This document shows positions 3,097 through 20,570 of a stretch of DNA of 23,279 nt, one piece after another. The position numbers and the translations under genes were made by a program. This stretch comes from a virus (Duplodnaviria > Heunggongvirae > Uroviricota > Caudoviricetes). Location of the stretch: IMG/VR virus record IMGVR_UViG_3300029816_000015, positions 1 to 23,279 of that record; one strand, given 5' to 3'. Below the pieces are notes generated by a model. That model was not told where the DNA came from. It searched no databases and was given only the letters and a program-made list of their open reading frames with translations. Numbering within the stretch: position 1 is the stretch's first letter; every line of letters starts with the position of its first letter.

Positions 3097-3543
3097 TTAA
3101 ACACTTGACGCTGGAATTGTTGAAGTATAGTCTAGCTTCTCACAACCAAAAATCCAAGTTTTAGAGTTCTGGTCACGACCAAGTTCAATCTGTGGTAATT
3201 CCTGCAACCAAGCATTAATACCAGTTGCCAGAACAGAGCCTGATGGGTCGTAGATTACGAAGTTAGAAGAGATATCTTCTTCAAGTTCCATATTGTCTTG
3301 TTTAGCTTGAATTGCAGAAAGCATCTGATTAGAGAGAGAAGTCTGCATTAGCTCAATCTCAATAGTACCTGTCTTGTCTGCATTTCTTGTCAGAGCAACC
3401 TGACCACCTGCACCTACAACTGGTGTGATAAGTGGTGATGTTCTCTGTAGACGTAAGAATGAGTCTGGAGCAAAGCCTTCAATAGCAATGCCATTCCAGC
3501 TACATACAACGTCTTTAGGGGAATATTGCTGATACATAGCCAT
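3097..3543 (-). CDS. Tail tube protein (putative)
   Basis: 148 aa ORF directly between the 450 aa sheath candidate and the chaperones; call by gene order and size only. Confidence 0.5.
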   Translation of the reverse strand: MAMYQQYSPKDVVCSWNGIAIEGFAPDSFLRLQRTSPLITPVVGAGGQVALTRNADKTGTIEIELMQTSLSNQMLSAIQAKQDNMELEEDISSNFVIYDPSGSVLATGINAWLQELPQIELGRDQNSKTWIFGCEKLDYTSTIPASSV

Positions 3544-3558
3544 TCCAATTTACCTCTA

Positions 3559-4911
3559 TTATTCGTAAGCCACTGTACCTTTCAAGTCAACATCCAAGAT
3601 AGCCCCTGCTAAGATACCTGCGAAGGTAACATCTTTCAGGATACGAGCTTTCTTGTCTGCCAAAGCAACTTGAGAGGCTTTAGGAACATTAACTGTGTAA
3701 GATGACAGGAAGTTTCTGTTGACTGCTCTTTGTAGAGAGGTTTCAATGACTTGACGAATACGGGTAATACCAGTATCATCATAAGTAATCTTACCACCCT
3801 TCTGGTTAATTAGCAAGTCTCTCAGAGAAGTTTTCAGGTCTGATTCCAACCAGTCAACACCACGGACGATATCAATCCATTCCCCACCAGAAGTAATCCC
3901 TCTACGAACCACTGGAACACCACCATCAAGGTCAATAAAGTTACAGTGACGTGCATCTAAAGCTGACTTCTGAATACTTGTCAGAGGTCTCTTATTAGCT
4001 GGCTGTAGAGAAGCAGCTACACCAGTTAGCTGAGCATTACCCCAAGCAATTGAACCTGCATCATATGGAGCACCATAAGCAATATATGCCATCTCTGGAT
4101 AATCTTCTGCCGCTGTGTGATGCCACAAGCAAACTGTGCGAGTATACATACTCTTAGCAAGCTGTGCTGGAACATCATTTGCACTGTTTAATTCTGTACC
4201 TTGTAGTGCTGCTACATCAGAGTTAGCTGTGAAGAAGATTTTCTTACGAGCCTGAATCTCAGAAGCCATTGCCAAAACAAACTGTTGAGTTCTGTCTTCT
4301 GCTGCAATGAAATACCAGTCGGTAGAATAAGCTTCAATAGCTGCCAGAGCAGTTGACGCTGTATCAGCAGTTGTGCTTGCAATAGACACAGTTTGTGCTG
4401 TAGTGGTTACCTTCACGAAATCATTGTCACCAGCTTTGGAGATGACCATTGTGGCAGAACCGTTGCTACCAGTAACATTGACTGAAACTTTATCTTTAAT
4501 TGATTGGTCAGCTTCAATCTGTGTTTTAAACTGTTGTAATACATTCTCGGCAGTGTCTTCACCTTGTGAGGTGTACTGGAATGGTTGTGACATTCCCCCA
4601 CCGACAGCTACAGTAATTGAGTAGTCTGTACTTTCGGTAACAGCATCAGGAATTGATACAGTATACTGCATAGCACGTCTACCAATATAAAGCTGAGTTA
4701 CTTTAGGAGTCTGACTCCAAAGTTGTTTAGCAGCCTTATATGCAGCAGTATTCTCATCGAAATCTTCAGCAACTTCAGTTAAGGAAGTGTAGCCACGAAC
4801 TCTTTCTTCAAAGTTATCTGTTGAAGCTAAGAATAGTGGCAAACCAAAACCTTCTCTTGTAGTTCCTGCGGTGTTCAATGTAATATCTACATTAACAATT
4901 GGATTCCACAT
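3559..4911 (-). CDS. Tail sheath protein (putative)
   Basis: 450 aa ORF immediately upstream of the tube candidate; sheath-tube-chaperone-TMP order is typical of contractile tails. No motif verification possible. Confidence 0.5.
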   Translation of the reverse strand: MWNPIVNVDITLNTAGTTREGFGLPLFLASTDNFEERVRGYTSLTEVAEDFDENTAAYKAAKQLWSQTPKVTQLYIGRRAMQYTVSIPDAVTESTDYSITVAVGGGMSQPFQYTSQGEDTAENVLQQFKTQIEADQSIKDKVSVNVTGSNGSATMVISKAGDNDFVKVTTTAQTVSIASTTADTASTALAAIEAYSTDWYFIAAEDRTQQFVLAMASEIQARKKIFFTANSDVAALQGTELNSANDVPAQLAKSMYTRTVCLWHHTAAEDYPEMAYIAYGAPYDAGSIAWGNAQLTGVAASLQPANKRPLTSIQKSALDARHCNFIDLDGGVPVVRRGITSGGEWIDIVRGVDWLESDLKTSLRDLLINQKGGKITYDDTGITRIRQVIETSLQRAVNRNFLSSYTVNVPKASQVALADKKARILKDVTFAGILAGAILDVDLKGTVAYE

Positions 4912-5511: not shown

Positions 5512-5887
5512 TCATTTTATCCCTTCTAATAATGATATATTCATAATGGGATGTATGGGCTAATTGCTGTGACCAATCCATAGTCATAAATACTTCATAC
5601 TCATGACCATCAATCATAACAATGTCAGACTCATTCCACTCTACATCGTCTGAAGTTCTAAGTTTATATGTAGTGTACAGGATTCTTGTATCGGTAAGTC
5701 TAATACCTTCCGGTAAAGCAATCTGTGTACCATTCTTTACAGAACCTTTGATATATGGCTGGATATTACCTTTACAGTTAACCTCTACAATATCTTGTGA
5801 AGCTACCCAATCACCATCATCATTATAATAACCGTCTTCAGAGACTTTACGCTTTACTACAAAGCTGTGTCTGTTTAAGAGTCTCAT
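5486..5887 (-). CDS. Hypothetical structural protein (head-tail connector candidate)
   Basis: 133 aa ORF, overlaps downstream gene by 26 nt; position between capsid and tail genes. Confidence 0.4.
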   Translation of the reverse strand: MRLLNRHSFVVKRKVSEDGYYNDDGDWVASQDIVEVNCKGNIQPYIKGSVKNGTQIALPEGIRLTDTRILYTTYKLRTSDDVEWNESDIVMIDGHEYEVFMTMDWSQQLAHTSHYEYIIIRRDKMNAVRNSRT

Positions 5888-13895: not shown

Positions 13896-13919
13896 AAAAA
13901 AGACGGTACAGAGACCGTC
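13896..13919 (-). terminator. Rho-independent terminator (minus sense GACGGU-CUCUGU-ACCGUC followed by UUUUUU)
   Basis: Perfect 6-bp GC-rich stem, 6-nt loop, then six T in minus sense; lies between the tRNA array and the terminase operon. Confidence 0.6.
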
Positions 13920-13984: not shown

Positions 13985-14044
13985 AAAAAAGCCCTGTCTA
14001 AAAATACTCTTCGGTAGCGAAAGGAAGAATACTTATAGCAGGGC
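13985..14044 (-). terminator. Compound stem-loop with T-run downstream of the last tRNA (candidate terminator)
   Basis: Minus sense GCCCUG...(nested hairpin)...CAGGGC followed by UUUUUU; loop is long (about 40 nt) so function is uncertain. Confidence 0.35.
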
Positions 14045-15083: not shown

Positions 15084-15091
15084 TAAATTGG

Positions 15092-15164
15092 GGTGACCTA
15101 CGGGATTTGAACCCGTATAGACCATGTTCACAGCATGGGTCATTACCTTTTATGATAAGGCCAC
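15092..15164 (-). tRNA. tRNA-His (anticodon GTG)
   Basis: Acceptor GTGGCCT/AGGTCAC, D stem TCAT/ATGA, anticodon stem CCATG/CATGG with loop CTGTGAA, T arm ACGGG-TTCAAAT-CCCGT, CCA encoded. Confidence 0.7.
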
Positions 15165-15198
15165 ATTTAAGGACTCTCGTAAGAACCCTTAGAAGTGG

Positions 15199-16254: not shown

Positions 16255-16353
16255 ATGAAAGAGGTCTGAAGTTGTGCCGCTAACTCAACTCCGTGGAATT
16301 TGTTATGGTCTTCAGTTGACTCAAAGCGGTCTTTCACTTGACCTCTAAATTGG

Positions 16354-16682: not shown

Positions 16683-16757
16683 TAGGAGACAAGGGATTCG
16701 AACCCTCAAACACCAACTTCTAAGGATGGTAGGTTTACCAATTACCGTCAATCTCCC
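16683..16757 (-). tRNA. tRNA with Leu anticodon TAG but short variable arm (75 nt)
   Basis: Acceptor GGGAGAT/GTCTCCT (two G-U pairs), anticodon stem CCATC/GTTGG with loop CTTAGAA, T arm GAGGG-TTCGAAT-CCCTT, A73, CCA encoded; two extra nt between acceptor and D stem. Confidence 0.45.
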
Positions 16758-17011
16758 ATTAAATCTTTTTAGAGAACTTCTAAGAACCTAAGCAACAAGG
16801 TTCCACAACAAGCTGTAATAACCTTAGAAGCCCTCTAAAAAGACCTAATTTGGTCTTTGCATAGTCTTGTTTAATCCGGTGACTAGAACCTTTGGAGAGC
16901 TTGATATATCTCTTCTCCGTGACACCTACTAGGTGCTTTATCAGTGTACGACAATACACGAGGGATAAACCGAAAATGCGAGCAAGCATGGACGGTGTAA
17001 ATCTTATTAGG

Positions 17012-17099: not shown

Positions 17100-17115
17100 C
17101 CTAATAAGATTTTGG

Positions 17116-17195
17116 CATGGGACGGAGGAGTTGAACCCCTTTGAAACGGTTTTGGAGGCCGTTGCTCATGCCTTAGAGTCTTAACATCGTCCCAT
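17116..17195 (-). tRNA. tRNA-Trp (anticodon CCA), enlarged D region
   Basis: 80 nt; acceptor ATGGGAC/GTCCCAT perfect, anticodon stem ACGG/CCGT with loop CTCCAAA, T loop TTCAACT, CCA encoded; D region about 7 nt longer than standard. Confidence 0.5.
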
Positions 17196-17340
17196 ACTGT
17201 AATTCGAAGCTTACCGTATTTTCACAACACTGTAAAGCCCCTTCTCAGATTATTTACATGTTCTGGAAAACATGAGATACAGACCACCTCCTTACACGGA
17301 GACCCGATAAGGTCGTCTAAGCAATCTGCTAACTATTTGG

Positions 17341-17414: not shown

Positions 17415-17617
17415 ATTAATCTTTAAAAACTCTCTTAGAAAGCCCTTAAAGATGCCCACCTTATTAATCATACCGTGGGCTAGTACGCCAAATTCTTTGA
17501 TGAGGGATTGGAAGACCTCACTGGTGTTTAGCCTATCAAGCTACTGCCAGAAAAACATTGTCGTTTGCATTTATTTTAAATTTGCAAAATAGACGCTACG
17601 CAACGAAAACTAAGGTT

Positions 17618-17646
17618 ACTATAAAGTGGTCACATCTAAATGTCAA
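17618..17646 (-). promoter_or_regulatory. Sigma70-like promoter inside the tRNA array (minus sense TTGACA-N17-TATAGT)
   Basis: -35 TTGACA at 17646..17641 and -10 TATAGT at 17623..17618 with a 17-bp spacer; predicted start near 17610, about 195 nt upstream of tRNA-Arg(TCT). Confidence 0.5.
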
Positions 17647-17664
17647 CAACTTTATTGAAATTGG

Positions 17665-17895: not shown

Positions 17896-17901
17896 ATTAA
17901 A

Positions 17902-18040
17902 TTATCTTTGTAGATAAGCTACCCAGACTTGCTTAAGGTCTGTAGCGATGTGCCTTGTTGGGTTTAAATCTAGAATTTACCCTTTCACCCTTTGTGGTCG
18001 CATACTCACAGGTAAGCTTAATAACTTATCTACAAAGATA
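17902..18040 (-). repeat. Long hairpin: 17-bp perfect inverted repeat (TTATCTTTGTAGATAAG / CTTATCTACAAAGATAA) enclosing about 105 nt
   Basis: Arms at 17902-17918 and 18024-18040 are exact reverse complements; interior holds smaller hairpins including CCAGAC-N8-GGTCTG (17922-17943); no tRNA fold found. Confidence 0.5.
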
Positions 18041-18044
18041 ATTA

Positions 18045-18176
18045 CCAGACCGTTGTTTATCATCTTAAGTGCTACCATTACACCAACTCGACATCTGCCG
18101 AGTGAAGGAATCGAACCTTCGCCTTTTCTTTACCGGAGAAATAGATTGTTTAAGTTTTGCTGTAAACGGTCTTCTG
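18045..18176 (-). ncRNA. Candidate Y-RNA-like ncRNA (YrlA-type) with permuted tRNA-like module
   Basis: Closing helix from minus-sense CAGAAGACCGUU (5') and AACGGUCUGG (3'); interior in minus sense has T arm GAAGG-UUCGAUU-CCUUC, then hairpin ACUCGGC-AGAU-GUCGAGU, then D-arm-like UGGUGUAAUGGUAGCAC. No anticodon arm. Confidence 0.4.
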
Positions 18177-18188
18177 TAAATTTGTTGA

Positions 18189-18265
18189 GCCAGACCAAGT
18201 TTTAAATTTTCAAAATTAAATTGGCTTTAAATTTTAAGTAACTTGCTGAATTTGGTCTTCTGCTC
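18189..18265 (-). ncRNA. Bulged-helix hairpin element, same closing helix as 18045..18176, AT-rich interior
   Basis: Arms GCCAGACCAAG (18189-18199) and TTGGTCTTCTGC (18252-18263) pair as AGACC/GGUCU plus a 3-nt bulge plus GG/CC; loop about 50 nt without tRNA-like arms. Confidence 0.3.
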
Positions 18266-18277
18266 CTTTAAAGAATA

Positions 18278-18314
18278 CTCGTAAGAACCCTTTAAGGGAG
18301 GGGCTAAATAGCCC
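18278..18314 (-). promoter_or_regulatory. Conserved spacer motif (minus sense CTTAAAGGGTTCTTACGAG) next to small hairpin GGGCTA-AA-TAGCCC
   Basis: Near-identical to the motif at 15174-15195 (minus sense CTTCTAAGGGTTCTTACGAGAG); weaker copies at 16770-16790 and 17428-17450. Function unknown. Confidence 0.3.
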
Positions 18315-18326
18315 TCTCAAAATTGG

Positions 18327-18590: not shown

Positions 18591-18655
18591 GCCAGACCGT
18601 GTTTTTTTTTCTTTTATCCGCAAAAAGTAGTTTATTGCTGCATACGGTCTTCTGC
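18591..18655 (-). ncRNA. Bulged-helix hairpin element (third copy)
   Basis: Arms GCCAGACCGT (18591-18600) and ACGGTCTTCTGC (18644-18655); 7-bp helix plus 3-nt bulge plus G-C pairs; 43-nt loop with a poly-T run on plus. Confidence 0.3.
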
Positions 18656-18748: not shown

Positions 18749-18821
18749 CCAGACCAAATCTCTTCTTTGTCCGATTTAGCTTCAGATGAATAAGATTAAG
18801 TTTGCTGTAATTGGTCTTCTG
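18749..18821 (-). ncRNA. Bulged-helix hairpin element (fourth copy)
   Basis: Arms CCAGACCAAA (18749-18758) and TTGGTCTTCTG (18811-18821) enclosing an AT-rich 50-nt loop. Confidence 0.3.
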
Positions 18822-19108: not shown

Positions 19109-19137
19109 ATATTAAAGGGTATCAAACACATTGTCAA
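19109..19137 (-). promoter_or_regulatory. Second sigma70-like promoter (minus sense TTGACA-N17-TAATAT) overlapping a hairpin
   Basis: -35 TTGACA at 19137..19132, -10 TAATAT at 19114..19109, 17-bp spacer; the -35 lies in the loop of hairpin GGGTAT...ATACCC (19117-19142). Confidence 0.45.
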
Positions 19138-19147
19138 TACCCTTTTT
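19115..19147. terminator. Hairpin GGGTAT-N14-ATACCC flanked by T/A runs (candidate terminator for the upstream minus-strand operon)
   Basis: 6-bp stem; on plus followed by TTTTT, in minus sense by UUUAAU; sits 10 nt downstream of the stop of the vWA gene. Confidence 0.35.
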
Positions 19148-19155
19148 AAAACTTT

Positions 19156-19521
19156 TTACCAGATATAACGGTCAACCATTACTGCTTTGAGCATTACGCT
19201 GATTGGGTCAAACTTCTCACCACCAAGCAGAGCTTTTAAAGTGGCTGGAGAGAACCCTGATACCATCGCTACACCATTATCCTTAACAGATACTTCGCAA
19301 GTACCATTACGGTTTGCTAAGTACCAGAATACTAGTTGTGGCATTTCGTATCCAGCTTTTTTGTACTTACTCTGAATTGCTTCAAAGTTTGTACGACCAT
19401 TTGCACCATCAACCTGATTAAACTCCATATCAGAGAAGATAATAAGCTTACTTGGCATATCTTTCTGAGTCAAGTTGTTTCTCTTACCTATCTCAAGAAT
19501 ACGGTCAAAGCTGCTTGTAAG
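19156..19521 (-). CDS. C-terminal part of Ro60/Rsr-like (or DUF2828-like) vWA-domain protein, out of frame with N-terminal part
   Basis: Frame open from just after a TAA at 19522-19524; encodes LTSSFDRILEIGKRNNLTQKDMPSKLIIFSDMEFN... (second half of a vWA fold). ORF track entry 19156..19473 begins at an internal TTG. Confidence 0.55.
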   Translation of the reverse strand, partial: LTSSFDRILEIGKRNNLTQKDMPSKLIIFSDMEFNQVDGANGRTNFEAIQSKYKKAGYEMPQLVFWYLANRNGTCEVSVKDNGVAMVSGFSPATLKALLGGEKFDPISVMLKAVMVDRYIW

Positions 19522-20570
19522 TTAGTTGAACCATATTCAACATGACGCATTACCTGACGATGACGGTTTCGTAAATCACCACTCAGTTCAATGAAATGAG
19601 GGTTTGTTGAATAGACCATTAACTCATCTTTAAAGCAACCTGTATTGCGTTCTGCTACATACAAGGCAAGTGATACACCAATATCAAGGGCAGTGATTGA
19701 ACCAAGATTCACCCAAGACATTGAGCTTGAAACATCAGTCATACACAAGATGTTCTCACCTTCTGCCATCCAGTTTGGTAGTGCTTTCCACTGCTCATTA
19801 GCAACATCTGCATTACCATGCTTGATAGACTTAATCACATCGTATGGGTAGACAGCACCAGCATTAATCTTAGCCTCACCTTTTGATAAGGACTCAATGT
19901 AAGCTTTGTAGCGTTCTCCATCTTTGCGGTTAAAGAGCTTTTGGTAACGTGCAGCAGCAAGAGACGGAATCTTACTGTAATCAATCTTACCAAACTCATT
20001 AGCAGAGATTTTTTGCTCAACCGTATCAGACAGTGCAGATAACAGTGTGCGGTATTCTTTCTCGCTTAAGTTTGCAAACTTACAGAAACGTTTTACAAAC
20101 TGTTTGTGTCGTGGTTTTACTCGTGGTAACCACTTGGCTGCTAAACCTGCTGTCTCAGGGTCTAGTAATGCTGCTTCTAAATGCTTAAAGGCATCTGTCT
20201 CAAAACGAGTACCTACGAAGATTTTGAAGTCATCAAAACGACCAAGTTCTGCAATCTTATCCATAATACGAAGAAACTGTGTAGGCTCTAAAACTTTATC
20301 TTCGATTGCTTGAAGTAAAACAGTTCTGAAGGCTTTACGCTCACCCATACCTTCTCGTACATCTCGCATGTGAAGCAAAATACGAACTGCAACATCAACA
20401 TCCTCACGCAAAGCTTTGTAGAACAAGTCTGGTAAGATTTCTACATTGCTACGGCTTGAACCAGCAGCTTTGTAAAAGTCCACAAGAGCAGACATTGATG
20501 AAGTATGGTTTACAGCACCATTTTCAGTTCGACCTGCATGAAGGTGCGCATGTTTAAATAATTCGCTCAT
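19488..20570 (-). CDS. N-terminal part of Ro60/Rsr-like (or DUF2828-like) protein: helical domain plus start of vWA domain
   Basis: 360 aa; RBS AAGAGAG upstream of ATG; helical N-terminal about 280 aa, then DxSxS motif (CMTDVSSSMSW) typical of a vWA MIDAS; ends at TAG 19488-19490 inside the vWA domain. Confidence 0.6.
   Translation of the reverse strand: MSELFKHAHLHAGRTENGAVNHTSSMSALVDFYKAAGSSRSNVEILPDLFYKALREDVDVAVRILLHMRDVREGMGERKAFRTVLLQAIEDKVLEPTQFLRIMDKIAELGRFDDFKIFVGTRFETDAFKHLEAALLDPETAGLAAKWLPRVKPRHKQFVKRFCKFANLSEKEYRTLLSALSDTVEQKISANEFGKIDYSKIPSLAAARYQKLFNRKDGERYKAYIESLSKGEAKINAGAVYPYDVIKSIKHGNADVANEQWKALPNWMAEGENILCMTDVSSSMSWVNLGSITALDIGVSLALYVAERNTGCFKDELMVYSTNPHFIELSGDLRNRHRQVMRHVEYGSTNLQAALTVFLR

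Follow-up and report, generated by a model that had tools for sequence, protein, structure and literature searches.

A conserved inter-unit RNA hairpin in the tRNA array of a Felix O1-like phage and its candidate role in precursor processing

Phage tRNA arrays are now viewed as counter-defense devices, and the cutting of their precursors has been almost unstudied outside of T4. Stem-loops between the units of a long phage transcript have been described in the early regions of T7 and T3 (e.g., R0.3 and R1.1), where the transcript is a product of host RNA polymerase and where RNase III cleavage leaves a hairpin on the 3' end of the upstream RNA, which it stabilizes. The hairpins reported here occupy a similar position. 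However, T7 sites have about two helical turns and an internal loop, whereas the copies that define the present motif have 10-14 bp and a UACG tetraloop; moreover, the units are mostly tRNAs and small RNAs instead of mRNAs. Stable C(UUCG)G hairpins were reportedly found in T4 intercistronic regions by Tuerk and colleagues in 1988. The present hairpins are likewise short, intergenic, and capped by a tetraloop of the UNCG type, but their closing pair is U-A, so that they need not share the exceptional stability of C(UNCG)G, and their stem sequence is conserved across phage families.

Three other systems offer partial parallels. In MALAT1/mascRNA and in bacterial tRNA-linked transcripts, a structure lies immediately 5' of a tRNA or tRNA-like RNA; by analogy only, an RNase P cut at such a site would give the upstream RNA a protected, structured 3' end. 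Unlike MALAT1, there is no triple helix here, and the domain of life is different. The T4-type promoter-early stem-loops (PeSL) also recur where exchangeable modules meet in the genomes of virulent phages; in contrast, no promoter adjoins copies 1 through 4 of the present hairpin, and their stems show RNA-type (G.U) conservation. Finally, REP/BIME elements are repeated intergenic palindromes able to shield upstream RNA from 3' exonucleases, but they are GC-rich and present in hundreds of copies on host chromosomes, whereas the present hairpins are AT-rich, confined to phages, and number approximately 5-6 copies per genome.

The window analyzed was the 23,279-nucleotide stretch of IMG/VR record IMGVR_UViG_3300029816_000015. 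A 5.1-kb region around the motif was 96-97% identical to Felix O1-like myoviruses such as Escherichia coli phage vB_EcoM_Shy, and by its sequence the window is a segment of a Felixounavirus (Felix O1-like, with genomes of about 88 kb). ARAGORN identified 26 tRNA genes, all on the minus strand, from 18990 to 14082; all sequences are given in minus-strand orientation, which is the tRNA-sense strand. Consensus scanning placed sigma70-type promoters at 19137 and 19046, upstream of the array, and at 17646 within it. Canonical hairpin and T-run terminators were present after the last tRNA (14044..13985 and 13919..13902), and the consensus scan found none of this type inside the array. All tRNAs were preceded by an A/U linker ending in U. 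Short inter-tRNA spacers consisted of such linkers (e.g., AAUUAAU), and every spacer of at least 25 nt in the cluster, when folded, formed a hairpin with its base adjoining the flanking RNAs. Two stem-loops of the PeSL type, each embedding a promoter, were also observed in the window (19145..19114 and 17655..17621), and homing-endonuclease genes were found inserted in the array region of relatives.

The initial annotation had described near-identical copies of a 20-nt spacer motif at 15174-15195 and 18278-18300. Both were recovered; the 15-mer AAGGGTTCTTACGAG has exactly two perfect matches, at 15190..15176 and 18292..18278, both on the minus strand. When as many as 3 mismatches were allowed, 5 matches were obtained compared to 0.56 expected, and none of 100 shuffled sequences reached 5; the remaining three matches look random. 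Likeness between the two exact copies stretches to 21 of 25 nt (repeat finder families D15 and D20). Two weaker copies that had been proposed were also true relatives. The one at 17428-17450 has 71-72% identity (72% for 17446..17422 by repeat finder), and the one at 16770-16790 falls in an inverted repeat of 27 bp (I1), of which it covers part of the loop and of the 3' arm. The recurrence is far beyond chance, and the observation is real. Two features had been overlooked: every copy is half of a hairpin, and the family has a fifth member.

Read as tRNA-sense RNA, each copy of the motif supplies the 5' arm and loop of a hairpin, with the complement a few bases downstream, and all copies folded as predicted. 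At least five paralogous hairpins are present in the cluster; each closes one RNA unit on its 3' side, and the next unit begins 0-6 nt further on. They are listed below together with a small neighboring hairpin.

Copy 1: 15168..15191, minus strand; 5' arm TAAGGGTTCT (15191..15182), loop UACG (15181..15178), 3' arm AGAGTCCTTA (15177..15168).
Copy 2: 18263..18300, minus strand; CTCC-C-TTAAAGGGT-TC-UACG-GA-TATTCTTTAAAG-GGAG, interrupted by a U x U and a C x A mismatch.
Small GC-rich hairpin GAGAGGGCTATTTAGCCCCTC: 18298..18318, minus strand; between tRNA-Asp and copy 2, with a 3-nt overlap with the outer stem of copy 2.
Copy 3: 17419..17453, minus strand; ATCTTTAAGGGCTTTCT-A-AGAGAGTTTTTAAAGAT, 16 bp including 4 G.U pairs (repeat finder I22).
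Copy 4: 16759..16848, minus strand; stem of 25-27 bp, arms 16848..16822 and 16785..16759, interior of about 36 nt (repeat finder I1).
Fifth member: 17900..18043, minus strand; stem of 23 bp, arms 18043..18020 and 17923..17900, interior of about 100 nt (repeat finder I2).

Copy 1 occupies the 31-nt spacer (15195..15165) between tRNA-Gln(CTG) and tRNA-His, starts 4 nt after the CCA of the former, and ends 3 nt before the latter. Copy 2, with about 14 bp, follows tRNA-Asp and the small GC hairpin. Copy 3 is the 3'-terminal stem-loop of a tmRNA-like RNA, 4 nt (UAAU) ahead of tRNA-Arg(TCT), and copy 4 adjoins the 5' end of tRNA-Leu(TAG) at 16757, with 0-1 nt between them. The fifth member begins 1 nt past a YrlA-like RNA and ends ...AAAGAUAAUU-UAAU, 4 nt before tRNA-Lys(TTT). 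The motif had been said to sit 10-20 nt 5' of several tRNA starts; this held for three copies and failed for the copy after tRNA-Asp, which adjoins a short, non-tRNA, Y-like small RNA element starting at 18262. The UACG loop is shared by copies 1 and 2 and by versions from Erwinia phages, T5-like phages, phiEco32-like phages, phage contig L059, and contig L044, and its closing pair is U-A in all copies, not C-G. Copies 3, 4, and 5 have other loops, and these three share the base ATCTTT.../...AAAGAT.

The motif-defining copies scored weakest against shuffled sequence, with z values of -2.97 (copy 1, flanks included) and -1.78 (copy 2 together with the GC hairpin), compared to -4.9 for copies 3 and 4. 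Copies 1 and 2 were moderately stable (-8 and -11.6 kcal/mol) with no sense/antisense asymmetry, and the Erwinia copy folded better on the antisense strand. For copies 3 and 4, the tRNA-sense strand gave folds 10-12 kcal/mol more stable than those of the opposite strand (-14.8 versus -4.7 kcal/mol for copy 3; -38.2 versus -25.8 kcal/mol for copy 4). G.U pairs numbered 4 in copy 3, 7 in copy 4, and 7 in the fifth member. Rfam covariance models gave no match at E <= 1 over any motif hairpin of the window, nor over those of the second Shy locus and of the T5-like and phiEco32-like loci. A degenerate tRNA arm was considered and rejected, as there was neither a match to the tRNA model nor a T-loop. 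The sequences UACGAGAG and CUUACGAG resemble, by eye, the 23S sarcin-ricin loop and the tRNA-Arg(ACG) anticodon loop, respectively. Both likenesses were regarded as coincidence; the bulged-G motif of the former and the 7-nt loop of the latter are unmatched, and the stable fold puts the bases of both in the stem.

A phage-specific promoter had been the leading idea of the initial annotation, which had also noted the lack of a sigma70 consensus. The latter point was borne out, with no -35/-10 pair at the motif copies by consensus scan. A promoter would suit the placement 10-20 nt upstream of three tRNA 5' ends, and the control of transcription timing in Felix O1 is still not understood (PMC3185647). 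However, the motif has no hexamers and is only half of a hairpin, its partner being its own co-evolving 3' arm; at the tRNA-Arg site of Suspvirus the sequence is swapped and a hairpin is retained. Genome-wide enrichment, which had been expected of such an element, was not observed: in the complete genome of phage Shy, matches to the 15-mer with up to 2 mismatches were confined to the two tRNA-cluster sites and did not stand ahead of gene blocks, and those at 3 mismatches look random. In other phages (phiEco32-like and L059) the hairpin lies just past stop codons. Shy also has a copy-3-like hairpin at a non-tRNA locus, the ligase-proximal intergenic region, where it lies approximately 35 nt downstream of a sigma70 promoter and not at the promoter. 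The sigma70-type promoters at 19137, 19046, and 17646 are themselves able to drive the array. We consider a phage-specific promoter extremely unlikely.

Termination is the other transcriptional role to be weighed. The hairpins could be weak or factor-dependent terminators or attenuators that grade expression along the array; the annotation of phage Michonne (TransTerm-type) labels copy 1 a terminator, and copy 2 with the GC hairpin forms a two-hairpin cluster. However, a U-tract is absent at all of the motif hairpins, whose tails are AAAUG, UAAUG, and AGCAGAAG; a scan for terminator-like sequences picked none of them, and the canonical T-run terminators sit at the cluster end. In addition, copies 1, 3, and 4 are followed by genes that lack promoters of their own and that efficient termination would silence. 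tRNA-His, tRNA-Phe, and the following genes are promoterless after copy 1, and therefore transcription must read through it. Termination is very improbable as the role of these hairpins.

Conservation was assessed in the Gln(CTG)-His spacer, which was retrieved from IMG/VR by its flanking tRNA anchors only (n = 31 Ounavirinae, including the window and annotated relatives). A hairpin-anchored conservation profile was discarded for anchor bias and one divergent sequence, and the tRNA-anchored set was used in its place. The 31-nt spacer was near-invariant in all 31 and identical in 19 of them. Only two stem variants of copy 1 occurred, a G->A in the 5' arm (G.U to A-U) and a G->A in the 3' arm (U.G to U-A). 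GenBank held about 370 phage records with this spacer element at 90% identity or higher. Orthologs of copy 2 changed G.U to A-U or G-C and repaired the C x A mismatch. In copy 3, three 5'-arm Gs are opposite UUU, UCU, or CCU depending on the phage, and at the same site Suspvirus has a different, longer hairpin ending 5 nt before the tRNA.

The longer members also retained their pairing. In copy 4, 100% of 225 cells were paired, compared to 37-63% in slid-partner controls; its changes comprised one double change (U-A to G-C) and seven one-sided, wobble-compatible changes. A small ORF over copy 4 (16989..16780, 69 aa) was rejected as coding, the frame being broken by an indel in Sf13. In the fifth member, 99.5% of cells were paired, four pairs had changed on both sides, and a coordinated 1-bp deletion in both arms separated Felixounavirus from Susp-/Mooglevirus. 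When 11 UACG-type versions from across families were aligned in register, 93.6% of cells were paired and four outer pairs were doubly changed; a mixed-paralog MAFFT alignment was out of structural register and was left out of the pair counts. Slid-partner controls across the three alignments paired 34-65% of cells. The stems thus keep pairing across Felixouna-, Susp-, Moogle-, and Kolesnikvirus by compensatory and G.U-compatible changes, along with coordinated 1-bp deletions, with most pair changes mapping to the split between Felixounavirus and Susp-/Mooglevirus and representing few independent events. The hairpin is a conserved structured RNA element with pairs held by compensatory substitution across relatives. 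Because the stems are rich in G.U pairs, one-sided changes run from G.U to G-C or A-U, cells that would be A.C are almost absent, and copies 3 and 4 are more stable on the sense strand, these data favor selection at the RNA level on the tRNA-sense transcript, at the least for copies 3 and 4 and most clearly for the longer members. What separates the units of the Felix O1 array is conserved RNA with structure and not filler.

The neighbor to which the hairpin belongs could be read from exchanges at the copy 3 junction. Phages of Felixounavirus and Mooglevirus share the same ncRNA and copy 3, which are then followed by three different alleles of tRNA-Arg(TCT), and homology between phages breaks directly after copy 3 (...AAAGAU). 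Erwinia phages (Kolesnikvirus) have only tRNA-level nucleotide similarity to the window. Their copy, AAAAGGTTCT-TACG-AGAGTCTTT, has a copy-1-type sequence at the position orthologous to copy 3, where it ends a conserved, promoter-driven ncRNA directly ahead of tRNA-Leu(CAA). The downstream tRNA is swapped while the ncRNA and hairpin are kept, and therefore the hairpin travels with the upstream unit. Its placement shortly past stop codons in phiEco32-like phages and L059 points the same way. The junction after copy 3 is, as judged from these comparisons, a module boundary.

The same junction invites a reading at the DNA level, in which the hairpin would be a small palindrome spread by recombination that marks or mediates module exchange, a role already proposed for T4-type PeSL cassettes, and has little RNA function of its own. 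The break in homology after copy 3 with different tRNA alleles following, the copy-1-type sequence at the copy 3 position in Erwinia phages, the copies in unrelated phage families, and the homing-endonuclease genes inserted in the region of relatives would all be in keeping with this. On the other hand, the many G.U pairs, together with the greater sense-strand stability of copies 3 and 4, suit pairing in RNA and not in DNA, the stems have been held by compensatory changes over genus-level divergence, no early promoter (the PeSL-defining trait) lies beside the motif hairpins, and no target-site duplications were seen. We regard a DNA-level junction as quite improbable. Nor is the hairpin a scar of homing-endonuclease insertion, because the HNH gene of phage Michonne interrupts tRNA-Leu(TAG) 11 nt from its start, with the hairpin undisturbed.

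Copies outside of the Ounavirinae were found by BLAST and an exact-pattern scan. They were as follows.

T5-like Epseptimavirus: GGTAT-C-TTTAAGAGTTCT-TACG-AGAGTTCTTAAA-C-ATACC, in a tRNA region, 14 nt before a ribosome-binding site; stem of 12+5 bp.
phiEco32-like phages: GAAGGATTCT-TACG-AGAGTCCTTT, 16 nt past a stop codon.
54-kb phage contig L059: UACG hairpin, 6 nt past a stop codon and 8 nt before the next ribosome-binding site.
252-kb contig L044: UACG hairpin with an 8-bp stem.

Approximately 35 further exact-pattern matches had only the 5-bp stem imposed by the pattern and were regarded as chance. Pfam domains were not found in the genes beside the T5-like and phiEco32-like copies. The hairpin sequence was absent from 5,426 complete E. 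coli genomes, and the sole match among GTDB species representatives was a mis-binned phiEco32-like phage contig; a host origin was rejected on these two results. The 12-mer core appeared in no phage paper in a literature search, nor is the motif described in the paper on the Felix O1 genome. Occurrence of the same 20-nt stem-loop in at least 3 unrelated groups of virulent enterobacterial phages suggests either that they use a common host factor or that RNA modules are often exchanged among them. Near-identity over 20 nt across unrelated families likewise suggests sequence-specific recognition or recent transfer, beyond a purely structural need.

Recognition of this kind could mean that the apical UUCU-UACG-AGAG is a sequence-specific protein site, read by a host RNA-binding protein or nuclease or by a phage factor such as a Ro60-like protein. 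Five phage lineages have the same loop and the same four closing pairs, with covariation in the outer stem, although invariance of these apical 12 nt is biased, the versions having been discovered by exact pattern or by BLAST with the sequence itself. A gene for a Ro60-like protein and Y-like RNAs are adjacent, and copy 2 directly adjoins one of these RNAs; by analogy, once RNase P had cut, the hairpin and its short remaining 3' tail would look like a Ro60 ligand, which is a helix with a 3' tail. However, paralogs 3, 4, and 5 fill equivalent positions with other loops. A dedicated protein site is, in our estimation, rather improbable.

The explanation that we prefer, and to which we give an even chance, is that the hairpin is a modular RNA stem-loop, 3'-terminal to the units of the array, that serves precursor processing and 3'-end protection. 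It would be transcribed within long precursors of the phage tRNA and small RNA array, and each copy would form the 3'-terminal structure of one unit; such units would be tRNAs, Y-like RNAs, the tmRNA-like RNA, and other spacer RNAs. Between the hairpin and the next unit lies only a short A/U linker, in most cases (U)AAU. The upstream unit would presumably be freed, with the hairpin as its 3' end, by RNase P acting where the following tRNA starts and/or by RNase E acting in the A/U linker. The hairpin could then block 3'-to-5' exonucleases, and it may also insulate the spacer by stopping it from mispairing with neighboring tRNAs. The processing or protein-binding site suggested by the initial annotation is compatible with this explanation and near to it; however, the unit is a 24-150-nt RNA stem-loop rather than a linear 20-mer, and it goes with the upstream RNA rather than the downstream tRNA. 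The element is not annotated, but its kind, a conserved RNA hairpin between units, is conventional. Several findings speak against this explanation. A protective hairpin 4 nt past the CCA of tRNA-Gln(CTG) should hinder 3' maturation, unless RNase E cuts between the two; copies 1 and 2 are of only moderate stability; and strand asymmetry in stability is lacking in copies 1 and 2 and reversed in the Erwinia copy. The near-identity of 20 nt across unrelated families, in part an artifact of searching with the sequence itself, is also more than a structural role calls for. No RNA-end data, expression data, or transcriptome for any Ounavirinae phage was found in the searchable literature. The hairpin family provides concrete, testable landmarks for the processing of tRNA-array precursors.

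RNase III might cut within the hairpins themselves, as at the T7 early-region sites, to yield sub-precursors with short leaders for RNase P. The inter-unit position of the hairpins matches that of the T7 sites, and an RNase III site 5' of the T4 tRNA cluster is on record; both favor this possibility. A typical E. coli RNase III substrate has about two helical turns. To our knowledge, no positive sequence consensus exists for RNase III. A helix of at least about 20 bp was found in copy 4 (25-27 bp) and the fifth member (23 bp), and these two longest members could be long enough to serve as RNase III substrates under the preferred explanation as well. Stems of 12+5 bp and 18 bp occur in the T5-like version and in the HY02 variant of copy 1, respectively, and copy 1, when its flanks are included, can fold into an upper stem of 10 bp and a lower stem of 5 bp separated by a 3x3 internal loop. 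In contrast, copies 1 (10 bp), 2 (about 14 bp), and 3 (16 bp) fall short, so that the motif-defining copies are below about two helical turns, and the lower stem of copy 1 would compete with the acceptor stems of two tRNAs. We consider RNase III cleavage as the main role unlikely but credible.

The motif also led to unannotated neighbors worth a study of their own, and the array looks to be a richer RNA locus than its annotation suggests, arguably more interesting than the hairpin itself. The gene just upstream of the array encodes DUF2828 and DUF7788 domains and is split in the window by a 1-nt deletion in a T-run near 19510. An intact ortholog was modeled with a pLDDT of 85.7, and the best structural matches of the model were Ro60 (2i91, E = 2e-8, full length), the TROVE domain, and Deinococcus Rsr; the predicted product is likely Ro60-like. 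ROT/TROVE proteins in jumbo phages have already been noted (PMC7824862). Four elements have the frame CAGAAGACC-N5-CAGCAA...GGUCUGG in common.

Y-like element: 18821..18749, minus strand; shared frame.
Y-like element: 18654..18592, minus strand; shared frame.
Y-like element: 18262..18190, minus strand; shared frame.
Y-like element: 18176..18045, minus strand; shared frame.

The longest of these folded into a closing stem, a V-like arm, an invariant T-arm, a closed acceptor-like stem-loop, and an invariant D-arm, and its acceptor-like stem has three different sequences among phages that always pair. This order is that of the YrlA architecture of bacterial Y RNAs, as described in a survey restricted to genomes annotated with a TROVE protein (PMC4201824).

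These neighbors allow a bolder reading, in which the hairpin would be the punctuation of an undescribed phage RNA-maintenance locus. UUCU-UACG-AGAG would be a sequence-specific handle, shared with T5-like and phiEco32-like phages by horizontal transfer, that defines RNA 3' ends and is read by a dedicated factor, possibly a host exonuclease together with a Ro60-like/Y-RNA particle. In Felix O1-like phages, a single array under the control of a few sigma70 promoters would encode the Ro60-like protein, one YrlA-like and three short Y-like RNAs, the tmRNA-like RNA, in which no tRNA-like domain is recognizable, and the 26 tRNAs. We offer this as speculation that is probably wrong in full but worth keeping in mind.

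The tmRNA-like RNA ending in copy 3 gave weak matches to the tmRNA family, and its consensus fold has six compensatory pairs. ARAGORN made no tmRNA call for it, and a tRNA-like domain was looked for and not found. Its tag frame reads GCA AAC GAC AAU GUU UUU CUG GCA GUA GCU UGA UAG, corresponding to the peptide ANDNVFLAVA and two stop codons at 17568..17533 on the minus strand. The tag in Erwinia phages is ANDAQFLAVA, likewise with two stops, and the differences are mostly synonymous.

The protein encoded immediately upstream of the tRNA array is predicted from its modelled structure to have a Ro60/Rsr-like fold, and candidates for Y-like RNAs were found within the array. These features are as follows.

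Window 19156-20570, minus strand: gene with the Pfam domains DUF2828 and DUF7788, directly upstream of the tRNA array
Window 18045-18176, minus strand: YrlA-like Y RNA candidate
Window 18749-18821, 18592-18654 and 18190-18262, minus strand: three shorter Y-like elements

The upstream gene is annotated in some relatives as 'RNA-binding protein'. The AF2 model, built from an intact ortholog, had a pLDDT of 85.7, and its best PDB matches were Ro60 (2i91; E = 2e-8, TM 0.65), a TROVE domain and the Rsr protein of D. radiodurans. In this window, the loss of one nucleotide from a T-run near 19510 splits the gene into two ORFs, which may reflect a sequencing error or a pseudogene.

The YrlA-like candidate was called by neither ARAGORN nor Rfam. 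It comprises a closing stem (AGACCGUU/AACGGUCU), a V-like arm, a T-arm (GAAGGUUCGAUUCCUUC), a closed acceptor-like stem-loop, and a D-arm. The T-arm and D-arm are invariant, and the acceptor-like stem occurs in three sequence versions among relatives with its pairing always kept. The element could instead be the remnants of two tandem tRNAs; however, this seems less likely because the two acceptor strands form a stem closed by a 4-nt loop. Besides this YrlA-like candidate, the three shorter elements lie between tRNAs, in tRNA-like positions, and share the frame CAGAAGACC-N5-CAGCAA...GGUCUGG. Their closing stem covaries (CAA/UUG versus CGU/ACG). Possibly they represent short Y-like (YrlB-like) RNAs.

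A further RNA in the array carries a tmRNA-like tag frame, and two promoters were found inside stem-loops.

Window 17454-17610, minus strand: ncRNA with a tmRNA-like tag frame at 17533-17568
Window 19114-19145 and 17621-17655, minus strand: stem-loops, each with a sigma70-type promoter inside

The ncRNA has a promoter at 17646..17618, and its tmRNA-like tag frame encodes ANDNVFLAVA followed by two stop codons. Erwinia phages keep this frame at the protein level (ANDAQFLAVA, also with two stops). Six compensatory pairs were counted in the ncRNA, and the Rfam tmRNA and tmRNA_permuted models matched it weakly. ARAGORN made no tmRNA call on it, and a search for a tRNA-like domain within it found none. 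An unrelated phage contig, L023, contains an ANDERFALAA tag followed by a stop and is likewise without a tmRNA call. The promoter-embedding stem-loops, exemplified by AAAGGGUA-UUGACA...-UACCCUUU followed by UAAUAU, recall the T4-type promoter-early stem-loop cassettes.

Further observations concern tRNAs and a tRNA-like sequence of the array.

Window 15089-15165, minus strand: tRNA-His
Window 17113-17195, minus strand: tRNA-like sequence without a tRNA call

In the phage tRNA-His, base 73 is C and position -1 is U instead of G (AAAU|GUGGCC...); the molecule therefore lacks the encoded G-1 that is normally required by bacterial HisRS. Its conservation is high, despite its listing as a pseudogene in tRNAscan-based annotations (PMC3185647). 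The uncalled sequence has a T-arm, a 9-nt anticodon loop containing CCA, and a possible acceptor stem of 8 bp; its Rfam tRNA-Sec match was weak (23 bits). A normal tRNA-Trp(CCA) is present in Erwinia relatives. The window sequence is probably a tRNA-Trp that is decaying or unusual. tRNA-Ser(TGA) lies between the arms of a perfect 13-nt inverted repeat (AAAUCUUAUUAGG / CCUAAUAAGAUUU), at 16999-17011 and 17100-17112; pairing of these arms would continue the acceptor stem as a long helix.

Other structures were observed in the spacers of the window and at related loci.

Window 16260-16346, minus strand: Thr-Val spacer hairpin
Phage HY02 (L012), 5674-5724: variant Gln-His spacer
Phage Shy, 61166-61594 (L038 16266-16694), minus strand: intergenic region that follows the DNA ligase gene
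Citrobacter phage Michonne (L005), 3153-3620, and also phage mistaenkt (L003): HNH endonuclease gene insertion

A single long hairpin (AGAGGUC...GACCUCU), which is conserved, takes up the 96-nt Thr-Val spacer; it stops 5 nt short of tRNA-Val, and its sequence shows no relation to that of the motif family. A strong Shine-Dalgarno-like UAAGGAGGUGGUC in the Arg(TCT)-Ser(TGA) spacer (17282-17294, minus strand) is also kept in the Erwinia phage spacer, and no conserved ORF follows it. In HY02, ...CCUUAGAA replaces ...CCUUAAAU, and the Gln-His spacer helix (copy 1) grows to 18 bp, incorporating the CCA end of tRNA-Gln together with the initial bases of tRNA-His. The Shy region contains a sigma70 promoter, a hairpin like that at the 3' end of the tmRNA-like RNA (copy 3), and approximately 250 nt of irregular GGU-rich repeats; an Rfam search of the region gave no match, and it may be another unannotated ncRNA. 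In the Michonne and mistaenkt entries, the HNH gene interrupts tRNA-Leu(TAG) 11 nt in and is followed by a replacement tRNA, and the hairpin upstream of the interrupted tRNA is intact.
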